In this document: one piece after another, positions 1,867 through 13,551 of the stretch | Position numbering within the stretch: the first letter of the stretch is position 1 | Layout of the letters: each line of letters begins with the position of its first letter | DNA from: an uncultured Thermococci archaeon | GTDB lineage: Archaea; Methanobacteriota_B; Thermococci; Thermococcales; Thermococcaceae | Direction of reading: 5' to 3' | Length of the DNA: 15,487 bases | NCBI GenBank assembly: GCA_964615185.1 | Contig: CAZTOS010000054.1 | Location: 1 to 15,487 of the forward strand | Program-made: the position numbers and the translations under genes | The notes under the pieces: model-generated | What the model was told of the DNA's origin: nothing | The model's database searches: none | What the model saw: only the letters and a program-made list of their open reading frames with translations

Positions 1867-3216
1867 ATGGTTCCAGAGAAGGCAGTGATTCTTGCAGGAC
1901 AAGGTTAGGAAAGCTAACTGAAGAAACTCCTAAAGGCCTTCTAAAAGTTGCTGGGAGAGAAATCATTTATAGAACTATGAAAGTTCTTCAAGAATTAGGC
2001 GTTAGGAAGTTCATAATCATCACAAATCCAAAATACAAGACTAAATTTAGGGAATTTGCTGAGAAGAGCGGCTTTAATGCTCAAATAATAAACGAACATC
2101 CAGAAAAAGGCAACGGATATTCCCTTTATCTAGCCAAAAATTGGGTTGATGGAAGGTTCATCCTTGTAATGAGCGACCATATTTATGAGAAAGCCTTTCT
2201 TGAGAGAGCATTGAAAGGGAAAGGGCTCATTGTTGATAAAGCTCCAAAGTATACTAGCATTAAGGAAGAAACAAAAGTTAAAATCAAAAATAACCGTGCG
2301 GAAGACCTTTGGAAAGCACCTCAAGGAGTTTGACGCCATTGATACTGGATTCTTTGTCTTGACTCCTGAGATATTCAATGCCGCGGATGAGATTCTGTCA
2401 GAAAAAGGAAAAGCTGAGCTGAGTGAGATTGTGAAAAAGGCAAAGCTCAAAGTAACTTTTGTGAATGGATTTTTCTGGATGGACATTGACACTCCAGAGG
2501 ACATTAAAAAAGCTAGGAAGCTGATAGTCCAGACCTCTATAAAAGGGAAGGGAGATGGCTTCATATCAAGACATTTGAACAGAAAGATTTCCACGAGAAT
2601 AAGCACTCTCCTCGTTGATCACGTTACTCCCAACCAGATAACCGTTGTAACTTTTTTGCTTGGCATTTTATCAGCCCTAGTGAATTTTATCAGCGTCCCC
2701 CTGGCTGGGATTCTGTATCAAATAAGCTCTATCCTTGACGGTGTTGATGGAGAGATTGCACGTGCAAGCATGAAGACGAGCAGATTCGGCGGCTATGTTG
2801 ATTCAATCCTTGACAGATACGTGGACTTTGCATTTTTGTTGATATTAGCTTACGTTACAATTAAAGAACCTCTCTGGTGGGTAATAGCTGTGACAGCAAT
2901 CTTTGGCTCTGCGATGGTGAGTTATTCAACGGAGTGCTATAAGGCAGCATATGGAAGCGACATTTACAAAGAAATATCCACAATGCGATACCTTATCGGA
3001 AAGAGGGATGAAAGGATATTCCTAACAATGTTATTCTGCTTAGCTGGACAAATAAAAGCTCTCTTTGCTCTATTAGCAGTCTTAACAAATCTTAGAATAG
3101 CGGCGACAGTTTGGTTGGTATGGAAAAAGGAATCAACTGACCTTAAAAACTACGACTTTTCCATCAACACGTTGAGCCACTATGTACTCTCCGCGAATGA
3201 ATATCTTAGTAGATAG
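1867..3216 (+). pseudogene. Frameshifted bifunctional inositol-1-phosphate cytidylyltransferase / di-myo-inositol-phosphate-phosphate synthase (IPCT/DIPPS)
   Basis: ATG 1867 gives MVPEKAVILAGQG* (TAG 1906-1908). The nucleotidyltransferase signature resumes in another frame (TRLGKLTEETPKGLLKVAGREII, from 1899) through GNGYSL and MSDH. It shifts again at 2307-2310 into [13 protein letters not shown]...WMDIDTPED. The CDP-alcohol phosphotransferase motif [10 protein letters not shown]7-GGYVDSILD and GKRDERIF follow. Confidence 0.9.
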
Positions 3217-4180
3217 GAGCTTCGCTTTATAGCACCTAAATCCCTCATCACTATAAACACAGAAACCGCTCTCACGCTTTCCTCCATATGTATTCACAAC
3301 ATAGGCAAAAGCACCTTGATTACATCCAATGCTAATTGACTCTGCATCCAACATAATTTTATCCGTGAGTGGGCTTTCTATTAGCTTCTCAAGCTTCCCA
3401 TCAAATGATAAAATAAACATTCTAGCGTTGTAGGTTATTCCGTAGAGCCTGTCGTTATCTGTATAGAGACATGCAAAAGCTTTATCCTCGGGTGTTAGAG
3501 GATATTCCCATAATAGTGTTCCAGCGTTATTGAACGCATAAAGCTTCCCAGAGTAGATGTCTCCCAAGGCTTCACCCCCATCAGCTATAAAAACTTTGTT
3601 CCCAGCAATTTCAAAAGTTTTTACTGGGAAATCACTTGTAAAGTTAAATATTATCCTCCCCCTTTTCAATATAGAAAACCTCCCTTCCAGTGGTTGAGCC
3701 CAGAATCATTTTGTTGTCTATTTTTAATACTTGAGGAATGCTTCCATTTTGTATTGAAGCCGAAAAACATTCATCACAATGGCAGATGTGATATATAATT
3801 GTTGAAACTGGAGACTTGTTTGCAATCTGGATAAAAAGCGTGTAATTCCCAAAATCAAATCCCGCATAGATTCTGGTTAGATTGGTTTGGATTTCTTTGA
3901 TTTCATCGCTCCTTAGATTTAGGTTATAAAGGGTATTTCCCTTCACAAATGAAAGAAGCTCGCCAATGAGGTAAGGATTTCTACCTTCAATCTCTCGAAT
4001 CCTATCACCACTTGTGATATCCAGAAGGACTATGTTCTCGTTGTTATGACATACCACATAATTATCAAAAACCCCAACAAGTAAACAATCTCTAACCCAG
4101 AGAGTCTGGGGCTGATTTGAATTTATCATAACCATTGAAACAAGCAACAAAAGAAAAAGAAAAACTATATCCTTTCTCAC
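3133..4180 (-). pseudogene. Secreted or membrane-anchored beta-strand-rich (probable beta-propeller) protein, split into two ORFs (4180-3644 and 3669-3133) by a 1-nt frameshift
   Basis: Removing one G from the G5 run (3658-3662) joins ...EVFYIEKG to RIIFNFTSDFPV... as a 348-aa ORF. Hydrophobic N-terminus, PQQ/BamB-like blade motifs (GKLYAFNNAGTLLWEY, ILSFDGKL). GTG start sits 3 nt after the ABC ATPase stop. Confidence 0.65.
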
Positions 4181-4183
4181 TCA

Positions 4184-5272
4184 TCACTCCTCCAGAAACT
4201 CCAGAGCTTCTTCTGTCTTTTTATCAAACAAGACGATTCTGTCTTCCCTAATCTTCACCGTTACCTTTTCTCCAAATGTGAAGTGCTCACCTTCCAATGC
4301 AAACACTTTAACAAATGCCCCACTGTTTACTGAAACAGTGACTATTTGCTCCCTTCCAAGAGGTTCGAAAGAGTAAACCTCTCCAACCAACCCTTCACTG
4401 ATGCCCTTTACTACCTCTGCATCATGCGGTCTAAATCCAAGGAGCACTTCCTTTATGTCGAGCTTTTCAATCAGCTCCTTATATTGAGCAGGGACTGGTA
4501 TTCTGCTTTCATAAATCCTTAAGTAGCCATTTTCAACCTCCGCTTCAACAAAATTCATGGGCGGATTTCCGAGGAATCCTCCAACGAACTTGTATTTTGG
4601 CTTGTGGTAGACCTCATCTGGGGTCCCAACTTGAAGTATTTTTCCTTCCCTAATCACAGCTATTCTGTCGGCCATTGCCAATGCCTCAGCTTGGTCGTGG
4701 GTAACGTAAACTGCCGTAATGCCTAACTCCTTTTGCAACCTCTTCAGTTCCGCTCTAACCTCAATTCTAAGCAAAGCATCTAAGTTGCTTAGGGGCTCAT
4801 CCAAAAGCAAAACATCTGGCTCCTTGACTAAAGCTCTCGCTATTGCAACTCTCTGCTGCTGACCGCCGCTGAGCTGCCAGGGGTATCTGTCTAAAAGGTG
4901 ATCTATGTGGAGCATCTTTGCCACTTCTTTCACTTTTTTCTCTATCTCTTCTTTGGGAGCTTTTTTAAGCTCAAGTGGGAATGCAATATTTTTGAACACT
5001 CTCATATGAGGATATAATGCCCAGTTTTGAAAGACCAATCCAACATTTCTGTCTTTTGGTGGAAGCTCTGTAACATCCCGTTCATCAAAATAAACCTTCC
5101 CAGATGTCGGCTTGTAAATGCCTGCTATTGTATAGAGCAGAGTAGATTTTCCACTTCCTGAAGGGCCTAACAAAGCCATGAATTCTTTTTCTTGAATTTT
5201 CAGGTTTATATTATTTAATGCAATGAATTTACCAAACTTTTTGGTTATATTCTTCAGAGTTACGCTAACCAT
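4184..5272 (-). CDS. ABC transporter ATP-binding subunit, MalK/UgpC (CUT1) family
   Basis: Walker A GPSGSGKS, Q-loop VFQNWALYPH, signature LSGGQQQR, Walker B LLLDEP, H-loop VTHD and a C-terminal TOBE-like region. Likely start ATG 5272 after RBS GAGGTGA. Confidence 0.95.
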   Translation of the reverse strand: MVSVTLKNITKKFGKFIALNNINLKIQEKEFMALLGPSGSGKSTLLYTIAGIYKPTSGKVYFDERDVTELPPKDRNVGLVFQNWALYPHMRVFKNIAFPLELKKAPKEEIEKKVKEVAKMLHIDHLLDRYPWQLSGGQQQRVAIARALVKEPDVLLLDEPLSNLDALLRIEVRAELKRLQKELGITAVYVTHDQAEALAMADRIAVIREGKILQVGTPDEVYHKPKYKFVGGFLGNPPMNFVEAEVENGYLRIYESRIPVPAQYKELIEKLDIKEVLLGFRPHDAEVVKGISEGLVGEVYSFEPLGREQIVTVSVNSGAFVKVFALEGEHFTFGEKVTVKIREDRIVLFDKKTEEALEFLEE

Positions 5273-5285
5273 TATCTTCACCTCA

Positions 5286-6155
5286 TTATCCTTTAATTCC
5301 TCCAACGTATGTTTTCAGGAGGAGCTGGTGAGCTAAGATGAAGAATATTATTGTTGGCAGTAGATAAAAAGTCCCCACTGCAGCTATTAGAGGCAAATGA
5401 GTGAATTCAACTTCGAGATTGCTCTCGATGTATGTTGCCAGAGTTGGATCTATAAGGAATGTTCTTACATATATCAAATCTCCCCATCCTGCCAAAAAAG
5501 CAAAGATTGCAATAGCCATTATCCCAGGTTTTATCAGAGGAACCATTATGTCCTTCCACACCTTTATCCTTGATGCTCCATCAATTATCCCAGACCACTC
5601 AAACTCCCATGGAATGGAGTCAAAGAATCCCTTCATTAGCCATACCGACATTGGTATTTCAAGAGCTCCCCTTGCAAGAATGACGTAGAGGAATGAATAA
5701 ACTCTCAATGCCAAAGGGTTTGTTGGTAATGTTAACCTATACATGAAGTAAACTCCTACTATTAGTGAGACCCCCGGAAATGAGTGCAGAAGCAGGAGAA
5801 ATATCATACTTTTCTTTCTTCCCCTGAATCTCATTCTTGAAAGGGCGTATCCTGCCATCGTGCTTATAAGCACAACTAAACCTGTTATTCCCAAAGCTAC
5901 AAGAAGCGTTGTAAGTGTATAGTGCCAGATATTAACAGTTATCCCTCCAGTTATAGCGGTCTTTCCTTTAAATACATTTATCCAGTTTACTATAGTAGGC
6001 CTAAAGGATGAGAGACTCAAACTGGTGAGCATTTCCTCGCTGAAGCTTGATAGAATGAGCAGTAAATACGTTATGATAATGGGGGATGCTGCTAAAATTA
6101 ATGCAAGAAGTATGACCATCTCATTCTTTTTGGGTATCGTCTCTATATCGTGCAT
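5286..6155 (-). CDS. Carbohydrate ABC transporter permease (MalG-like)
   Basis: About 6 hydrophobic segments, AGYALSRMRFRGR and EAA-loop variant FDSIPWEFEWSGIIDGAS. TAATG overlap with the upstream permease. Confidence 0.93.
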   Translation of the reverse strand: MHDIETIPKKNEMVILLALILAASPIIITYLLLILSSFSEEMLTSLSLSSFRPTIVNWINVFKGKTAITGGITVNIWHYTLTTLLVALGITGLVVLISTMAGYALSRMRFRGRKKSMIFLLLLHSFPGVSLIVGVYFMYRLTLPTNPLALRVYSFLYVILARGALEIPMSVWLMKGFFDSIPWEFEWSGIIDGASRIKVWKDIMVPLIKPGIMAIAIFAFLAGWGDLIYVRTFLIDPTLATYIESNLEVEFTHLPLIAAVGTFYLLPTIIFFILAHQLLLKTYVGGIKG

Positions 6156-7090
6156 TATAGATCACCCCTTGGTTCTCTCATCATCTCCTCAAATTTCATT
6201 ATCTTCAAAATCAGGAAACCAAGTGAAACTCCAAGTATGGATAGCAAAGTTGCAGCTGCAGCTGCAAGCCCCTGTTCCTGCCTCCCCCTACCGAACGCTG
6301 TCGTATAGACGTAGAGGGCTAAAGTACTTCCATAGTCATTGTTAACAATACCCCATGCCACAAGAGGATAAAGATGGAAATACGTTAAGAGTAAGCTCAT
6401 GAGCTGCCATATCGTTGCATACATTATATGCCATCTTATCATCGGAATTAAAATTTTTCTTGAGATCTCCCAATTTGAGGCACCATCAACCCTTGCCGCT
6501 ATCACTAATTCCCTGGGGATATGACTCAAAGCCGAACTAAAAACCAACATTCCATAACTAACCCCAACTATCGCATTTACAAAAATTATAACCCCCCATG
6601 CTCCCCACGGGATCCTTTGGCCCCAAGCAACTGGAGAATCAATAATTCCCAATTTCATCAAAATAGAATTTAGAGTTCCTATTTCACTATTGTGGAAGAA
6701 ATAGTACCAAAGAAGGCCAAAAACTGCTACAGGCGTCATTCTGGGTAAAAGCCAAATAACCCTCATAAGTGTTGAGGCATCTTCCCTTATGAAGAAGGTT
6801 CCAAGAGCTAATAACAACCCTCCAATTATGTTTATTATGAGAGTTATAATAACGAAAACTATAGTTGTCTCCAAGATTGATTTAAAAGAGGGATCATAAC
6901 GCATCATGTGTATAAGTCTTTTGTAATTATAAACACCTATAAAATCATGGAGGTATTTTAAATTCCAATTCATGGTTGGTGTGAAACTCGCATATAAGCT
7001 AACTATTAGTGGAACGAGATAAAACAACACAACAATAAGGATCATTGGAGAAAGAAAAAAGAAAAGTTCAAAAAGTTTGGACCTCCCCAT
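6155..7090 (-). CDS. Carbohydrate ABC transporter permease (MalF-like)
   Basis: Multiple TM segments, GxxNY motif and EAA loop IPRELVIAARVDGAS. Likely start ATG 7090 after RBS GAGGTGA. Confidence 0.93.
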   Translation of the reverse strand: MGRSKLFELFFFLSPMILIVVLFYLVPLIVSLYASFTPTMNWNLKYLHDFIGVYNYKRLIHMMRYDPSFKSILETTIVFVIITLIINIIGGLLLALGTFFIREDASTLMRVIWLLPRMTPVAVFGLLWYYFFHNSEIGTLNSILMKLGIIDSPVAWGQRIPWGAWGVIIFVNAIVGVSYGMLVFSSALSHIPRELVIAARVDGASNWEISRKILIPMIRWHIMYATIWQLMSLLLTYFHLYPLVAWGIVNNDYGSTLALYVYTTAFGRGRQEQGLAAAAATLLSILGVSLGFLILKIMKFEEMMREPRGDL

Positions 7091-7100
7091 TGGAATCACC

Positions 7101-8741
7101 TCAAGGGAATGTCCAATCTTCTGGAATCTTTCCGACGATCTCTACATTCTTCGTTAATTCTGGATCAGCTTTTATCTTCTGAATTATGTATTCAACTCCC
7201 TCCTTTGGTGTCATTTGTCCTCTAAGCACTTTATCAATTGCATCTTTAAAGATGTCCGCTAATGCAGGATATTGTGGATGTGCTGGTGTTAAGTTGGTGT
7301 ATTCAAGCATGTAACTAACATCAGCCAGGAATTGAGCATTTATTGGGTTTACTGTCTTTGCAACTATTTCACCTATGTGCTGCTTAACTTCTGAACTTAA
7401 GTCAAGATTGAGATTCCTTAAATCATTAAGCCACTTTTCATCTTTAATTAAGTCCGCTGCAGCCTTTCTAACTGGAAGGTGTGCCGAGATAACACTGTGA
7501 ATTGCATTAATATCTGGGTCGCTTGCTTTCACTATTATCAGGAATGCAAGCTTGTGATATACGTCTTTGAGCTCATCATACTTTGGATTTTGTGCACCGG
7601 CTTCCGAATTAATCATCCATACATATGGCTGGCTTAAAGTTACTGGCTTTTGACCCTTCTCACCAGCTGGGAACAATGTATAGTAGAACCATTCCTTAAC
7701 TTCTTCTGGCTTAAGGGCCCTTGGAGTTCCCTCTTTTGAATAGTACTTTTTGGTTTGCCATTCAGTCCAGTGCCATGTGCCACCTATGAAGAACATAGTC
7801 TTTCCTTCCACAGCGCTTGGATGTATTTGCTTAGCCCAATCCCAGCTCATTATGTCCTTTGCAAGTAATCCATCTTGAGCGAATTTCCATTCTGTGTAAA
7901 ACCACTTATAAACTGCTGGGACATCCAAAACAAGCTTACCTGTGTCTTTGTTATAGAGCTTTCCACCAAATGCAAAGATGAACTGGATTAAGTCCGGATG
8001 TGCCGAGCCCTTCCTGTGAACAAGACCCCACTCTGCACATCCCTTCTCCTTTGCGGTTTTTGCTAAGCTGTAAACATCGCTCCATGTAAACTCTCCATTC
8101 TTCACTTTCTCATTAATCCCGTTTAAATTGATTCCAGCACATTTTGCTACATCTGTTCTGATGTAAAGTGGTCTTGCCTCGGTGTCCTGTGGCAAGCCAT
8201 AAAGCCTGTCTTTCCATTTTGATGCTTCGATAAGGGCCGGGTAAAAGTCGTTTAACTCGTTCTTGTAGGCATTTGCAAATTCCGTCACATCCAGGATATA
8301 TCCTTCTTCTGCAAGAGTTGGTATATATGCATATGAATTAGCAAAGAAGTCTCCAGCTTGTTTAAGTGGCTGCTTGCTCATATATTCTTGGAAAATTTCC
8401 TTGGGATTTGCAACATACTTTACATCAACTGATATTTTCACGTTCACATTATTCTCCGACCAGATTTTGTTTATTCTTTCTGCGGCTTCTACTATTCCAT
8501 AAACCCTCATGATGCTGTTTGGGTCTCCCCCGCTCCATGCACTAAACTTAACCTCGCTAATGCCATTCTGCTCAAGAACCTTCCCTATCGCAATCGCATC
8601 CTTCGTAAAGTCCCCAGTAAGCTGAACTTCTGTAGAAGGGGCTTGTGTCTGAGTTGTTGTTTCCTTCCCGCCGCCAATACAACCGCTGGCAATCACTCCA
8701 AGAAGCAATATTGCAATTAACCATACGGCTCTTGTTTTCAC
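7101..8741 (-). CDS. ABC transporter extracellular solute-binding lipoprotein (sugar-binding family 1-like)
   Basis: Signal peptide ending in the Thermococcales-type SGCIGG motif, Thr/Gln-rich linker, and SBP motifs LYGLPQDTEARPLY and IFAFGGKLY. Likely GTG start at 8741 with AGGTGG upstream (the track gives 8750). Confidence 0.92.
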   Translation of the reverse strand: MKTRAVWLIAILLLGVIASGCIGGGKETTTQTQAPSTEVQLTGDFTKDAIAIGKVLEQNGISEVKFSAWSGGDPNSIMRVYGIVEAAERINKIWSENNVNVKISVDVKYVANPKEIFQEYMSKQPLKQAGDFFANSYAYIPTLAEEGYILDVTEFANAYKNELNDFYPALIEASKWKDRLYGLPQDTEARPLYIRTDVAKCAGINLNGINEKVKNGEFTWSDVYSLAKTAKEKGCAEWGLVHRKGSAHPDLIQFIFAFGGKLYNKDTGKLVLDVPAVYKWFYTEWKFAQDGLLAKDIMSWDWAKQIHPSAVEGKTMFFIGGTWHWTEWQTKKYYSKEGTPRALKPEEVKEWFYYTLFPAGEKGQKPVTLSQPYVWMINSEAGAQNPKYDELKDVYHKLAFLIIVKASDPDINAIHSVISAHLPVRKAAADLIKDEKWLNDLRNLNLDLSSEVKQHIGEIVAKTVNPINAQFLADVSYMLEYTNLTPAHPQYPALADIFKDAIDKVLRGQMTPKEGVEYIIQKIKADPELTKNVEIVGKIPEDWTFP

Positions 8742-8838
8742 GACCACCACCTGTTGGCAGTTTTTAAAGTCAGAGCCAAATAAAGCTCAAACGGGTTATT
8801 AAAGTACGTCAGACTCATATTTTAGTTAGCTTTTGTTA

Positions 8839-8854
8839 TTTATAAAATTTGTGG
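8839..8854 (-). promoter_or_regulatory. BRE-TATA promoter of the ABC operon
   Basis: Minus strand CCACAAA-TTTTATAAA; would imply a 5' UTR of about 75 nt. Confidence 0.55.
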
Positions 8855-8924
8855 ACTTTAAATGCCAGACAAACTTCATGGGTGTTATATACGTATGCCT
8901 ATTAACTATTGCTAATTTCATAAT

Positions 8925-8941
8925 CGAAAAATATTTAATTA
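8925..8941 (+). promoter_or_regulatory. BRE-TATA promoter of ino1
   Basis: CGAAAAA-TATTTAATTA about 40 nt upstream of ATG 8981; RBS GAGGTGG at 8969-8975. Confidence 0.6.
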
Positions 8942-8980
8942 ATATAAAATAATTAACAGCTAAAAAATGAGGTGGTAGAA

Positions 8981-10132
8981 ATGGTGAAGGTTGTTATACT
9001 TGGTCAGGGATACGTTGGGAGCATATTTGCAATAGGAGTTGAGCGAATCAAAAGAGAAGACCTCGGCTACTACGGAATTCCACTGGCAAATGAGTTACCA
9101 ATAAAAGTGGAAGACATTGAAATTGTTGGTTCTTACGATGTCGACAAGAGCAAGATTGGAAGACCTCTCTACGAAGTTGTCAAGAGATACTGGGAAGATG
9201 AAATCCCAGAGAGCCTCAAGAACGTTGTAGTAAGAAAGGGCATTCACTTGGGAAGCCTTCGCAACCTACCAATTGAGGCTGAAGGCTTAGAGGACAAGAT
9301 GACTCTCAAAGAAGCTGTAGAAAAGATCGTTGAAGAGTGGAAGGAGCTCAGGCCAGATGTCATTGTCAATGTCTGTACAACTGAGGCATTTAAGCCCTTC
9401 AACAACAAAGAAGAGCTAATCAAAGCCATAGAAAATGACAACAGAGAAAGACTAACGGCAACACAAGTTTACGCTTATGCTGCTTCGCTGTATGCAAAAG
9501 AAGTTGGTGGAGCTGCTTTCGTAAATGCAATTCCAACGTTGATAGCAAACGACAATGCATTCCTCGAACTTGCAAAGGAGAGCAACTTAGTCATCTTTGG
9601 AGACGACGGTGCAACCGGTGCAACACCATTGACAGCCGACATCTTGGTTCACTTAGCCCAGAGAAACAGATACGTTAAGGACATAGCTCAGTTCAACATC
9701 GGTGGAAACACTGACTTCTTAGCTTTGACAGACAAAGACAGAAACAAGAGCAAAGAATACACAAAGTCAAGCATTGTAAAGGACATTCTGGGCTATGATG
9801 CACCACACTTCATTAAACCAACTGGATTCCTTGAGCCCCTTGGAGACAAGAAGTTCATCGCAATGCACATCGAGTATGTCAGCTTCAACGGTGCAATAGA
9901 TGAGCTTGTCATAACTGGAAGAATCAATGACAGCCCAGCTTTGGCTGGACTATTGGTTGACCTAGTTAGACTGGGAAAAATTGCCATTGAGAGAAAGGAG
10001 TGGGGAACAGTCTATGAAGTCAACGTATTCTACATGAAGAACCCGGGACCAGCGGAAAAGGGCAACATTCCAAGGATTATCGCTTATGAAAAGATGCGCC
10101 AGTGGGCAGGGCTTAAGCCGAGATGGCTGTGA
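8981..10132 (+). CDS. ino1: myo-Inositol-1-phosphate synthase
   Basis: Rossmann GQGYVG, GDDGATGAT, QFNIGGNTDFLAL, LGDKKF, INDSPALAG and FYMKNP motifs. Intact reading frame; ATG 8981 after a strong RBS. Confidence 0.95.
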   Translation: MVKVVILGQGYVGSIFAIGVERIKREDLGYYGIPLANELPIKVEDIEIVGSYDVDKSKIGRPLYEVVKRYWEDEIPESLKNVVVRKGIHLGSLRNLPIEAEGLEDKMTLKEAVEKIVEEWKELRPDVIVNVCTTEAFKPFNNKEELIKAIENDNRERLTATQVYAYAASLYAKEVGGAAFVNAIPTLIANDNAFLELAKESNLVIFGDDGATGATPLTADILVHLAQRNRYVKDIAQFNIGGNTDFLALTDKDRNKSKEYTKSSIVKDILGYDAPHFIKPTGFLEPLGDKKFIAMHIEYVSFNGAIDELVITGRINDSPALAGLLVDLVRLGKIAIERKEWGTVYEVNVFYMKNPGPAEKGNIPRIIAYEKMRQWAGLKPRWL

Positions 10133-12453: not shown

Positions 12454-13551
12454 TTAGACCCCACCCCGAGACTGAAAGACTCGCTTTATAACAGGGTCAG
12501 AAATTTTGTACTCACCATAGCCAACATGCTCAAGGAAGTTGTAGTCAACGAGTTTTTTGAGGTATCTTTGGATATCTGCCTTGGCTATCTTTGTCCTTTC
12601 TTGCAACTCAAGAGCCTCTTTTATCTCGGTCCACGTGGCAGTTTCTTTTGTGGAAGTTATATTAGCGACGATCTTCAACATTGCTCTGTAACGGGGGCTA
12701 AGCTCGTCCAATTCAGCAAATTCAGCCTCGATGTACCCCGAAGCTTCATTTATGACCTCATTAATTGCATCTTCATGATTGTAACCATCAACACGATATG
12801 CACCATAGTGGGTGAGCCAGCCTGCAACCCCATCAAGACTTTTTATTGCAGATAGCAGTTCCTTTGACGGGATACTCATGCCATACTCTTTAAACCCTTG
12901 CTCGAGGAACTCAAGGCTCTCTGACGGGTTGAAACGGTTGAGCTTTATTCGAACATGATACCGACCGTAAAGGAGTGCTTTGTAGTCATACAAACGGAGA
13001 AACTTCTCAAGGACACCAACCTGCGAGCCAGTAAGGATAAGTACGACATTCTTCAGTGTGTCATAAATCCACGCGAGGATTTTGGTAAAGTCGTCATTCG
13101 CAAAGCGGAGGTACTGCACCTCATCAAAAGCAAGAATAAGCAGTTCGTTAGATTCATTAAGATCTTGAAGAACCTGGGGTAATGTAGGCTTTTCATCTCT
13201 TAATCTAACACCAAAACCTGAGAGGGATACACCTTCTATCTTTGAGACTATCCCCCTAATCTTACTCTCTCTGTTTACGGCGTTGACTATCTCCCTTGCG
13301 ATGATATCGTGAGGTGCTTTCGCGTTTACGTTGAAAACAGCACGAGCATCGATAACAATGTATGGTATTGAGTAATCTTTATGGAGCTCATTGAGTGAGG
13401 CGTAAAGGAAAGTTGTTTTGCCTATCCTTCTCGGTCCAGTAATAATGAAAAGTTTGCGATTGTTCTCTATCTTATCAACAAGTTCAAGATATTCTGCCTT
13501 CCGTCCAAAAACTTCGTCCATCGATGTTTTAGGATAGGTATCAAAGAGCAT
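12454..13551 (-). CDS. Archaeal P-loop ATPase (ATPase_2/AP-ATPase type) with probable C-terminal winged-helix domain
   Basis: N-terminal FGRxxE, Walker A GPRRIGKT, Walker B LAFDEVQ, LTGS, LYGR and GxxGWL motifs. wHTH-like C-terminus WTEIK...YLKKLVDYNFL...YKISDP. Confidence 0.88.
   Translation of the reverse strand: MLFDTYPKTSMDEVFGRKAEYLELVDKIENNRKLFIITGPRRIGKTTFLYASLNELHKDYSIPYIVIDARAVFNVNAKAPHDIIAREIVNAVNRESKIRGIVSKIEGVSLSGFGVRLRDEKPTLPQVLQDLNESNELLILAFDEVQYLRFANDDFTKILAWIYDTLKNVVLILTGSQVGVLEKFLRLYDYKALLYGRYHVRIKLNRFNPSESLEFLEQGFKEYGMSIPSKELLSAIKSLDGVAGWLTHYGAYRVDGYNHEDAINEVINEASGYIEAEFAELDELSPRYRAMLKIVANITSTKETATWTEIKEALELQERTKIAKADIQRYLKKLVDYNFLEHVGYGEYKISDPVIKRVFQSRGGV

Follow-up and report, generated by a model that had tools for sequence, protein, structure and literature searches.

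The four-gene CUT1 ABC transporter cassette between ipct-dipps and ino1 in the window (the whole 15,487-nucleotide stretch of DNA analysed, contig C54 of the Thermococcales genome G000, which is 95.6% complete) probably encodes an InoE-like importer of phosphorylated inositol, whose cargo in G000 would be channelled into lipids or catabolised. Judged from protein family and gene neighbourhoods, the ligand is likely an inositol phosphate or an inositol phosphodiester; a glycerophosphoinositol-type diester and an inositol monophosphate are each tentative candidates, as is a compound containing no inositol, di-myo-inositol phosphate (DIP) or mannosyl-DIP is a slightly fainter one, and free inositol is very improbable. 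In the scheme that we propose, inositol-1-phosphate or a phosphodiester such as glycerophosphoinositol or DIP would be imported from outside, the diester would be cut in the cell by a glycerophosphodiesterase or a PhnP-like enzyme, and the freed inositol would be re-phosphorylated for archaetidylinositol or, alternatively, oxidised via scyllo-inosose towards 2-keto-3-deoxygluconate. With its ipct-dipps broken, G000 would use the imported compound for membrane lipids or as a carbon source rather than for DIP synthesis.

The cassette and its binding protein

The cassette (4184-8750) consists of four minus-strand genes that abut or overlap; it is divergent from ino1, and ipct-dipps lies downstream of it, tail to tail. 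The gene nearest ino1 (7101..8750) encodes a substrate-binding protein (SBP) of the SBP_bac_1 family (PF01547), a lipoprotein with the lipobox GCIGG and a likely GTG start at 8741, and is followed by the genes of two BPD_transp_1 permeases (PF00528), the InoF-like permease 1 (6155..7099) and the InoG-like permease 2 (5286..6155), and by that of a MalK/UgpC-type, InoK-like ATPase with OB/TOBE domains (4184..5305; PF00005, PF17912 and PF08402), whose best NCBIfam match is UgpC, under the cut-off of that model. All parts of a CUT1 importer are thus present in one operon, and the tight set of SBP, two permeases and ATPase that a preliminary description of the window had placed between ipct-dipps and ino1, divergent from the latter, is borne out by coordinates and Pfam matches; its statement that the window holds no glycosidase likewise stands, no glycosidase family being found among the 17 open reading frames (ORFs) scanned. 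The ino1 gene (8972..10132, plus strand; PF01658 and PF07994) is intact and encodes a myo-inositol-phosphate synthase 95-97% identical to that of six of seven relatives from the genus of G000 (g1; g2 to g6 denote other Thermococcaceae genera, and G and L numbers genomes and loci). The divergent region between it and the transporter (8751..8971) has AT-rich boxes at both ends that are conserved across nine aligned intergenic regions, and may act as a promoter common to the transporter and ino1.

The SBP family forms a single clade (SH-aLRT 99) in a quick tree of 38 proteins, comprising 30 family members, seven other PF01547 matches of G000 and one other Thermotogae SBP, and is set apart from the latter two groups. 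Residues R82, QDTE.R at 188-193, H245-R246, W326, H418, S422 and H424 are kept in nearly all members from archaea to rhizobia; E191 and W326 presumably correspond to ligand-contacting positions of maltose-binding protein, and the conserved arginines would suit an anionic ligand. The PQDTEARP-type motif highlighted in the preliminary description is real and family-wide: 129 of 131 close homologues carry PQDTE[AV]RP, and of the 120 homologues in a Thermus-centred set 106 carry PQDTEARP. The same description had named a grouping with characterised maltose, trehalose or glucose binders as an outcome that would speak against an inositol ligand, and no grouping with maltose or trehalose binders was seen. 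The predicted structure (pLDDT 93.6) has the class II SBP fold, and the 40 solved structures listed in a fold search, the nearest of which bind sugars and sulfoquinovose, are all 13-19% identical to the SBP; the T. litoralis trehalose/maltose binder (1EU8) is 16% identical by fold and was matched by sequence with an E value of 0.008, and the SBP lies in a separate clade of a tree whose outgroups are uncharacterised SBPs. No UgpB match occurs among the 60 profile matches or the 40 fold matches listed, and the SBP matches no NCBIfam SBP model. The system thus resembles UgpBAEC and MalE/TMBP/MdxE in its CUT1 architecture and class II SBP fold, and its family travels with glycerophosphodiesterase as Ugp does, but its SBP is at most 19% identical to the structures listed and stands in a clade of its own.

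The name 'inositol-phosphate transport system substrate-binding protein' is given by JGI to six of the best 120 homologues listed, the other named ones bearing generic names, and one NCBI record carries the same inositol-phosphate transport label; these labels are automatic assignments rather than functional evidence, and we take the JGI label to derive from KEGG K17237. In P. furiosus the orthologue of the SBP is PF0119, whose signal peptide as published is identical to the N-terminus of the G042 protein. PF0119 has been detected as a secreted lipoprotein; the accessible part of PMC3824201 annotates it as a periplasmic binding protein for sugars, ascribes a 'more general role' to it and names no ligand. 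Unlike the SBP gene of the window it is not linked to ino1. The 550-aa form of the SBP constitutes a clade found in hyperthermophiles (Thermococcales, Desulfurococcales, Methanocaldococcus and Pseudothermotoga); family members from mesophiles are shorter by about 100 aa. Several Pseudothermotoga species (L067-L075) carry an archaeal-type SBP of 526 aa, about 60% identical and divergent from an AP_endonuc_2 gene, which is likely the result of interdomain transfer.

Inositol and phosphodiester genes around the family

The neighbourhoods of distant family members argue for an inositol phosphate or phosphodiester as the ligand. Among bacterial plasmids, seven of 140 records were picked by genus, six of them annotated and the seventh without annotation, and in all six annotated loci a glycerophosphodiesterase gene directly follows that of the ATPase. 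The Rhizobium, Marinovum and Antarctobacter loci contain an inositol monophosphatase gene as well, and in Thermus the cassette comes after iolD, iolC, iolG and iolB, at the end of the iolDCGB operon. A family member was found in 30 of 401 crenarchaeal genomes, and 20 of these loci (12 of a close and eight of a distant clade) were taken for inspection together with 79 hand-picked neighbour proteins. One distant-clade locus, L107, is flanked by IolM (538 against a cut-off of 450), IolN (255 against 245) and an IolO-like gene with TM0416 as its best PDB match, that is, by the genes that adjoin inoEFGK in T. maritima. Another, L106, adjoins IolC (368 against 300), an IolB-like gene and a glycerophosphodiesterase gene, and the latter enzyme is encoded just upstream in L105 and, among 26 metagenome loci (many of them short), in L082 and L090, which have a HAD hydrolase upstream too. 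The other five distant-clade crenarchaeal loci have no inositol or diesterase gene as a direct neighbour. The theme that recurs in distant lineages is that of inositol together with phosphodiester cleavage; the closest relatives outside the Thermococcales are for the most part uninformative. In one lineage of crenarchaeal type (L084, L085, L089, L091 and L096) a GT2 glycosyltransferase gene comes after the ATPase gene, and it was counted downstream in four of the 26 metagenome loci; the enzyme could glycosylate inositol lipids or DIP.

Within G000 itself there are outlets for both proposed fates. Archaetidylinositol-phosphate synthase (223 against a cut-off of 180) and inositol phosphatase are present, as are two glycerophosphodiesterase-family genes and an inositol-kinase homologue. 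The latter shares 45% identity with a protein of G060 whose sequence is that of PDB 3W4S, presumably the T. kodakarensis inositol 3-kinase; G060 lacks the transporter. On another contig (G000:C25:7768-16404, L166:2768-11404) lies a co-directional operon of the Thermotoga inositol catabolic type, in which adjacent genes for IolM (553.7 against 450) and IolN (346.9 against 245) are followed by those of a Zn-dehydrogenase, an altronate-dehydratase-like protein, a PfkB kinase, a DHDPS-family aldolase, a second dehydrogenase and a PhnP-like metallo-hydrolase, and then by the adjoining mannosylglycerate genes. The two Zn-dehydrogenases could, we infer, stand in for IolG. Elsewhere in the genome (G000:C17:17990-24379, L168) another CUT1 cassette stands behind two GFO/IDH/MocA dehydrogenases that resemble IolG below cut-off; these could supply the first catabolic step, or that cassette could import free inositol.

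Of 97 Thermococcaceae genomes six have IolM above cut-off (G000, G122, G124, G125, G130 and G131), all of them among the 47 carriers of the SBP, and in the five others the seven genes that begin with IolM and end with the second dehydrogenase stand in the same order, with the PhnP-like gene nearby in four and the G130 contig ending before it. As for ipct-dipps in these six, it is broken in G000, was not found in G122 and G124 (95% and 81% complete), is intact in G125 and G131, and is cut by a contig end in G130. In G125 about 17 kb between the genes of MPG synthase and MPG phosphatase (L169:3093-21941) hold two GH130 genes, a GH38 mannosidase gene and the IolM/IolN operon, an island possibly devoted to mannosylglycerate or mannosyl-DIP utilisation. 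A paralogue of the PhnP-like gene occurs as a single copy in the majority of Thermococcaceae genomes (83 of 97 have any match). In eight of nine g3 genomes (G040-G047) this PhnP-like metallo-beta-lactamase gene has the same orientation as ino1 and lies 68-1,430 bp downstream of it; the position marks the enzyme family as a candidate for the hydrolysis of inositol phosphodiesters, and the ino1-linked gene is a candidate for a DIP phosphodiesterase or a DIP-phosphate phosphatase.

With T. maritima InoEFGK (TM0418-TM0421) the system shares the four-gene CUT1 set, the JGI label of homologues, the context of L107 and the presence of IolM and IolN in the genome. For InoE (TM0418) the accessible part of the supplement to PMC3750489 lists inositol-1-phosphate and inositol as ligands from a binding assay, and in the accessible part of PMC2246101 TM0421 is placed, with low support, near archaeal ATPases of unknown function. 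The cassette of G000 differs in being embedded in a biosynthetic locus, the catabolic operon being on another contig, without IolO and ending in a PhnP-like phosphodiesterase.

Of the 133 genomes of the class 47 have the SBP, and these belong to a single family: G000, all seven others of g1, none of three in g2, all nine in g3, 16 of 62 in g4, 13 of 14 in g5 and the single g6 genome. In 35 of the 46 other carriers (seven in g1, 15 in g4 and 13 in g5) the cassette is divergent from ino1 within 500 bp, and in 18 of the 46 ipct-dipps completes the sandwich on the same contig. Among 11 ipct loci without the cassette, ipct and ino1 stand in tandem at 42-202 bp in six, are separated by a small ORF or an IS element in two, ipct is alone in one and the ORF filter gave no call in two; the cassette therefore occupies the gap of a two-gene unit. 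In the complete genome G118 (L044:10698-11353) just SBP and ATPase fragments are found beside ino1, with no permeases and no ipct-dipps match.

The ipct-dipps locus and the exchanged block

The ipct-dipps gene (1867..3135, plus strand) is a pseudogene of IPCT/DIPP synthase, as is evident from its NF041135 match in two pieces, its alignment with relatives and its translation. Relative to four members of its own genus it has a 10-bp deletion after 1896 and one additional base at about 2307, and its usual stop is lost, so that the frame runs to 3216; the two pieces score 158 and 477 bits against a cut-off of 580, and there is no single intact IPCT/DIPPS frame. A contig from a second study (run X2) spans 1217-2452 with no differences and has the same lesions, contigs from a third (run X3) have other indels within the gene, and no second copy was found in the 95.6% of the genome that is covered. 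In G100 the gene is broken too, by internal stops. A working ipct-dipps beside the transporter, as assumed in the preliminary description, is hence contradicted by two frameshifts that the run X2 contig shares, and because of the pseudogene the idea of a thermoprotectant precursor for the DIP pathway is unsupported for G000. The broader claim of that description, import of an inositol compound, is upheld by the family neighbourhoods in bacteria and crenarchaea, by the JGI label and by the lack of grouping with maltose or trehalose binders, and two sinks remain for the cargo, lipid head groups, archaetidylinositol-phosphate synthase being present, and the catabolic IolM/IolN operon.

Between ipct-dipps and the cassette lies a frameshifted passenger gene (3133..4180, minus strand) for a predicted secreted PQQ-like beta-propeller, for which a PQQ_2 match at 0.90 in the ESM Atlas provides a lead. 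It is split by one additional base near 3658 into two 178-aa pieces (3133-3669 and 3644-4180) that are 94% and 85% identical to the halves of the intact 345-aa ORF of G100. The gene was described earlier as a secreted-protein component of the operon; as it is present at this site in four genomes only (G000, G100, G098 and, as a remnant, G127), it does not belong to the core of the transporter. A perfect TrmBL1 motif within it (4003-4019) is probably due to chance, the genome having 11 sites with at most one mismatch. In G100 (L128, contig C313, genus g4) the genes for the PIN protein and the beta-propeller, together with the 3' portion of ipct-dipps, are 88-97% identical to the window and dph6 about 66%, a pattern that reflects either further exchange at the ipct-dipps locus or a binning artefact. 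Contigs of runs X3 and X7 join 1930 to 4192/4196, with 27-33 bases only on the short side, hinting at strains without the rest of ipct-dipps and the passenger gene. Two more genes of the window, a PIN-domain gene (416-835) and an archaeal ATPase_2 gene (12454-13551), are absent from the own-genus loci compared and represent small insertions. The runs that contain the C54 sequence are mostly hydrothermal-vent metagenomes.

The central part of the cassette (about 4800..8600) has been replaced by in-place recombination: it is 92-100% identical at the nucleotide level to G124, of genus g5 (about 94-99% for the SBP-permease block), as against 60-83% to own-genus relatives, whereas in sliding windows the flanks are mostly 80-97% identical to the own genus and about 60-80% to G124. 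At the protein level permease 1 is 98% identical to that of G124 and 63-66% to the others compared, and permease 2 is 98% identical to that of G124 and 68-70% to those of the seven other g1/g5 genomes compared. The ATPase is chimeric, with a 3' half of own-genus type and a 5' half within the swapped block, and the junctions are bridged by contigs of run X1, possibly the source run, and of the independent run X7. Because the promoter, the SBP signal region and the ATPase 3' half are of own-genus type, the G000 lineage is the likely recipient, and the donor may be a third lineage, since G000 and G124 form a pair on a long branch apart from both g1 and g5 (support 100, quick tree). Except for the loop at 73-74 the swap has left the predicted pocket residues as they were, so that there is no indication of a different ligand.

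The layout of the locus has a published counterpart. According to the accessible part of PMC4932500, which cites Cario et al. 2015, T. barophilus has a four-gene insertion of about 5 kb between IPS and IMPCT/DIPPS and makes no DIP, and a second insertion lies between MPG synthase and MPG phosphatase; both are treated there as interruptions, with no function or ligand named in that part of the text. The cassette of G000 has the same position and size, and G125 shows both this layout and a 17-kb MPG insertion as described there (PMC4932500). G000 differs from T. barophilus in that its ipct-dipps is physically broken, it has acquired a passenger gene and its SBP-permease block, exchanged by recombination, has diverged (SBP identity 76-79%).

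Competing ligands and implications

Several observations weigh against an importer of phosphorylated inositol. T. maritima InoE was not among the matches listed in three protein searches with this SBP family, so that membership in the InoE family, like the resemblance to InoEFGK, would be drawn from labels and genomic context, and no published binding evidence for the 550-aa archaeal clade was found in the literature searched. The homologues with rich contexts are only 24-39% identical to the SBP of G000; the Martelella and Terrarubrum plasmid loci have diesterases but no inositol gene, and the 12 close-clade crenarchaeal loci have no inositol or diesterase neighbour among the 79 proteins scanned. 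In G000 no homologue of IolO (searched with one query), IolD, IolE or IolB was found, and the two IolG-like genes on C17 score below cut-off. The co-occurrence of IolM and the transporter is suggestive only, as the six IolM genomes represent about three lineages and 41 of the 47 carriers are without IolM, and glycerophosphodiesterase does not track the transporter, occurring in 88 of 97 genomes and being absent from four of 37 good-quality carriers. The linkage to ino1, which the preliminary description had proposed as a check and which holds in 35 of 46 carriers, furthermore carries less weight than its frequency suggests: a single ancestral placement probably underlies the 35 cases, which are then not 35 observations, ino1 is unlinked in 10 of the 46 (all nine g3 genomes and G132, with G098 outside both counts), and neither ino1 nor ipct was found in the 26 metagenome loci, many of them short, or the 20 crenarchaeal loci.

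The notion that the transporter is a dedicated importer of DIP or mannosyl-DIP, by which osmolyte released by neighbours is kept intact as a heat protectant in place of own synthesis, draws on the occurrence of the 550-aa clade in hyperthermophiles, from the splitting of the ipct-ino1 pair by the cassette, from the broken ipct-dipps of G000 and G100 and the further indels in run X3, from the absence of DIP in T. barophilus with the same insertion (PMC4932500, accessible part), and from the carriers without glycerophosphodiesterase. Loss of ipct-dipps is however not enriched in carriers (not found in two of 37 good-quality carriers as against six of 41 non-carriers), P. furiosus makes DIP despite having PF0119, and the predicted pocket residues are identical in soil rhizobia, which are not expected to encounter DIP, so that we consider this function unlikely. 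A Ugp-like importer of broad range, taking up glycerophosphodiesters or polyol phosphates such as glycerophosphoglycerol or diglycerol phosphate, with inositol as one of several head groups, would explain why glycerophosphodiesterase is the most constant neighbour (in the six bacterial loci and in L082, L090, L105 and L106) and agrees with the sub-threshold UgpC match of the ATPase; it is made improbable by the facts that the catabolic pathway genes adjoining family members are all inositol genes and that UgpB structures are missing from the profile and fold matches listed.

Quite improbable, finally, is an ordinary sugar importer that landed by chance in an insertion hot spot. The ipct-ino1 site does take unrelated insertions, namely an IS605 element (L116), a 464-aa gene (L046/L047) and the beta-propeller gene, PF0119 is annotated as sugar-binding in the accessible part of PMC3824201, and the nearest listed folds bind sugars or sulfoquinovose; but the clade is separate from the other SBPs of G000, its distant members have independent inositol and phosphodiester contexts, and no glycosidase is found among the neighbours scanned for close-clade loci. 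An importer of phosphorylated inositol thus remains the reading that we favour.

As an annotation the core of this reading is not new, since the gene layout is published and an automated label exists. In the literature searched, which left most subscription papers outside, we found no link between the insertion and inositol uptake, no IolM/IolN operon in Thermococcales and no PhnP-like candidate of this kind, nor any archaeal inositol-phosphate importer or route of DIP uptake or breakdown. The reading proposes a ligand class for a widespread orphan transporter, the PF0119 family, found in 47 of 97 Thermococcaceae genomes, and offers a functional interpretation of two T. barophilus insertions held to be mere interruptions of osmolyte synthesis. 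It is testable in genetically tractable archaea, as the cassette is found in types of T. barophilus and P. furiosus, and G060, whose kinase is presumably identical to the T. kodakarensis enzyme, is without it. A wider and rather doubtful extension is that some Thermococcales gave up the synthesis of hyperthermophile osmolytes and came to feed on them: an importer of DIP-type diesters would have uncoupled the DIP operon, an inositol-degrading operon with mannosidases and a DIP-cleaving PhnP-like enzyme would have settled in the mannosylglycerate locus, and the binding module would have been traded between genera by in-place recombination. Such a switch would account for the lack of DIP in T. 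barophilus and for the interruption of both its solute loci, and would constitute the first pathway of DIP uptake and turnover in archaea. If the import of phosphorylated inositol is real, a lineage of former DIP makers would have become scavengers of inositol phosphates, and the inositol lipids and osmolytes of dead cells would be a resource common to vent communities.

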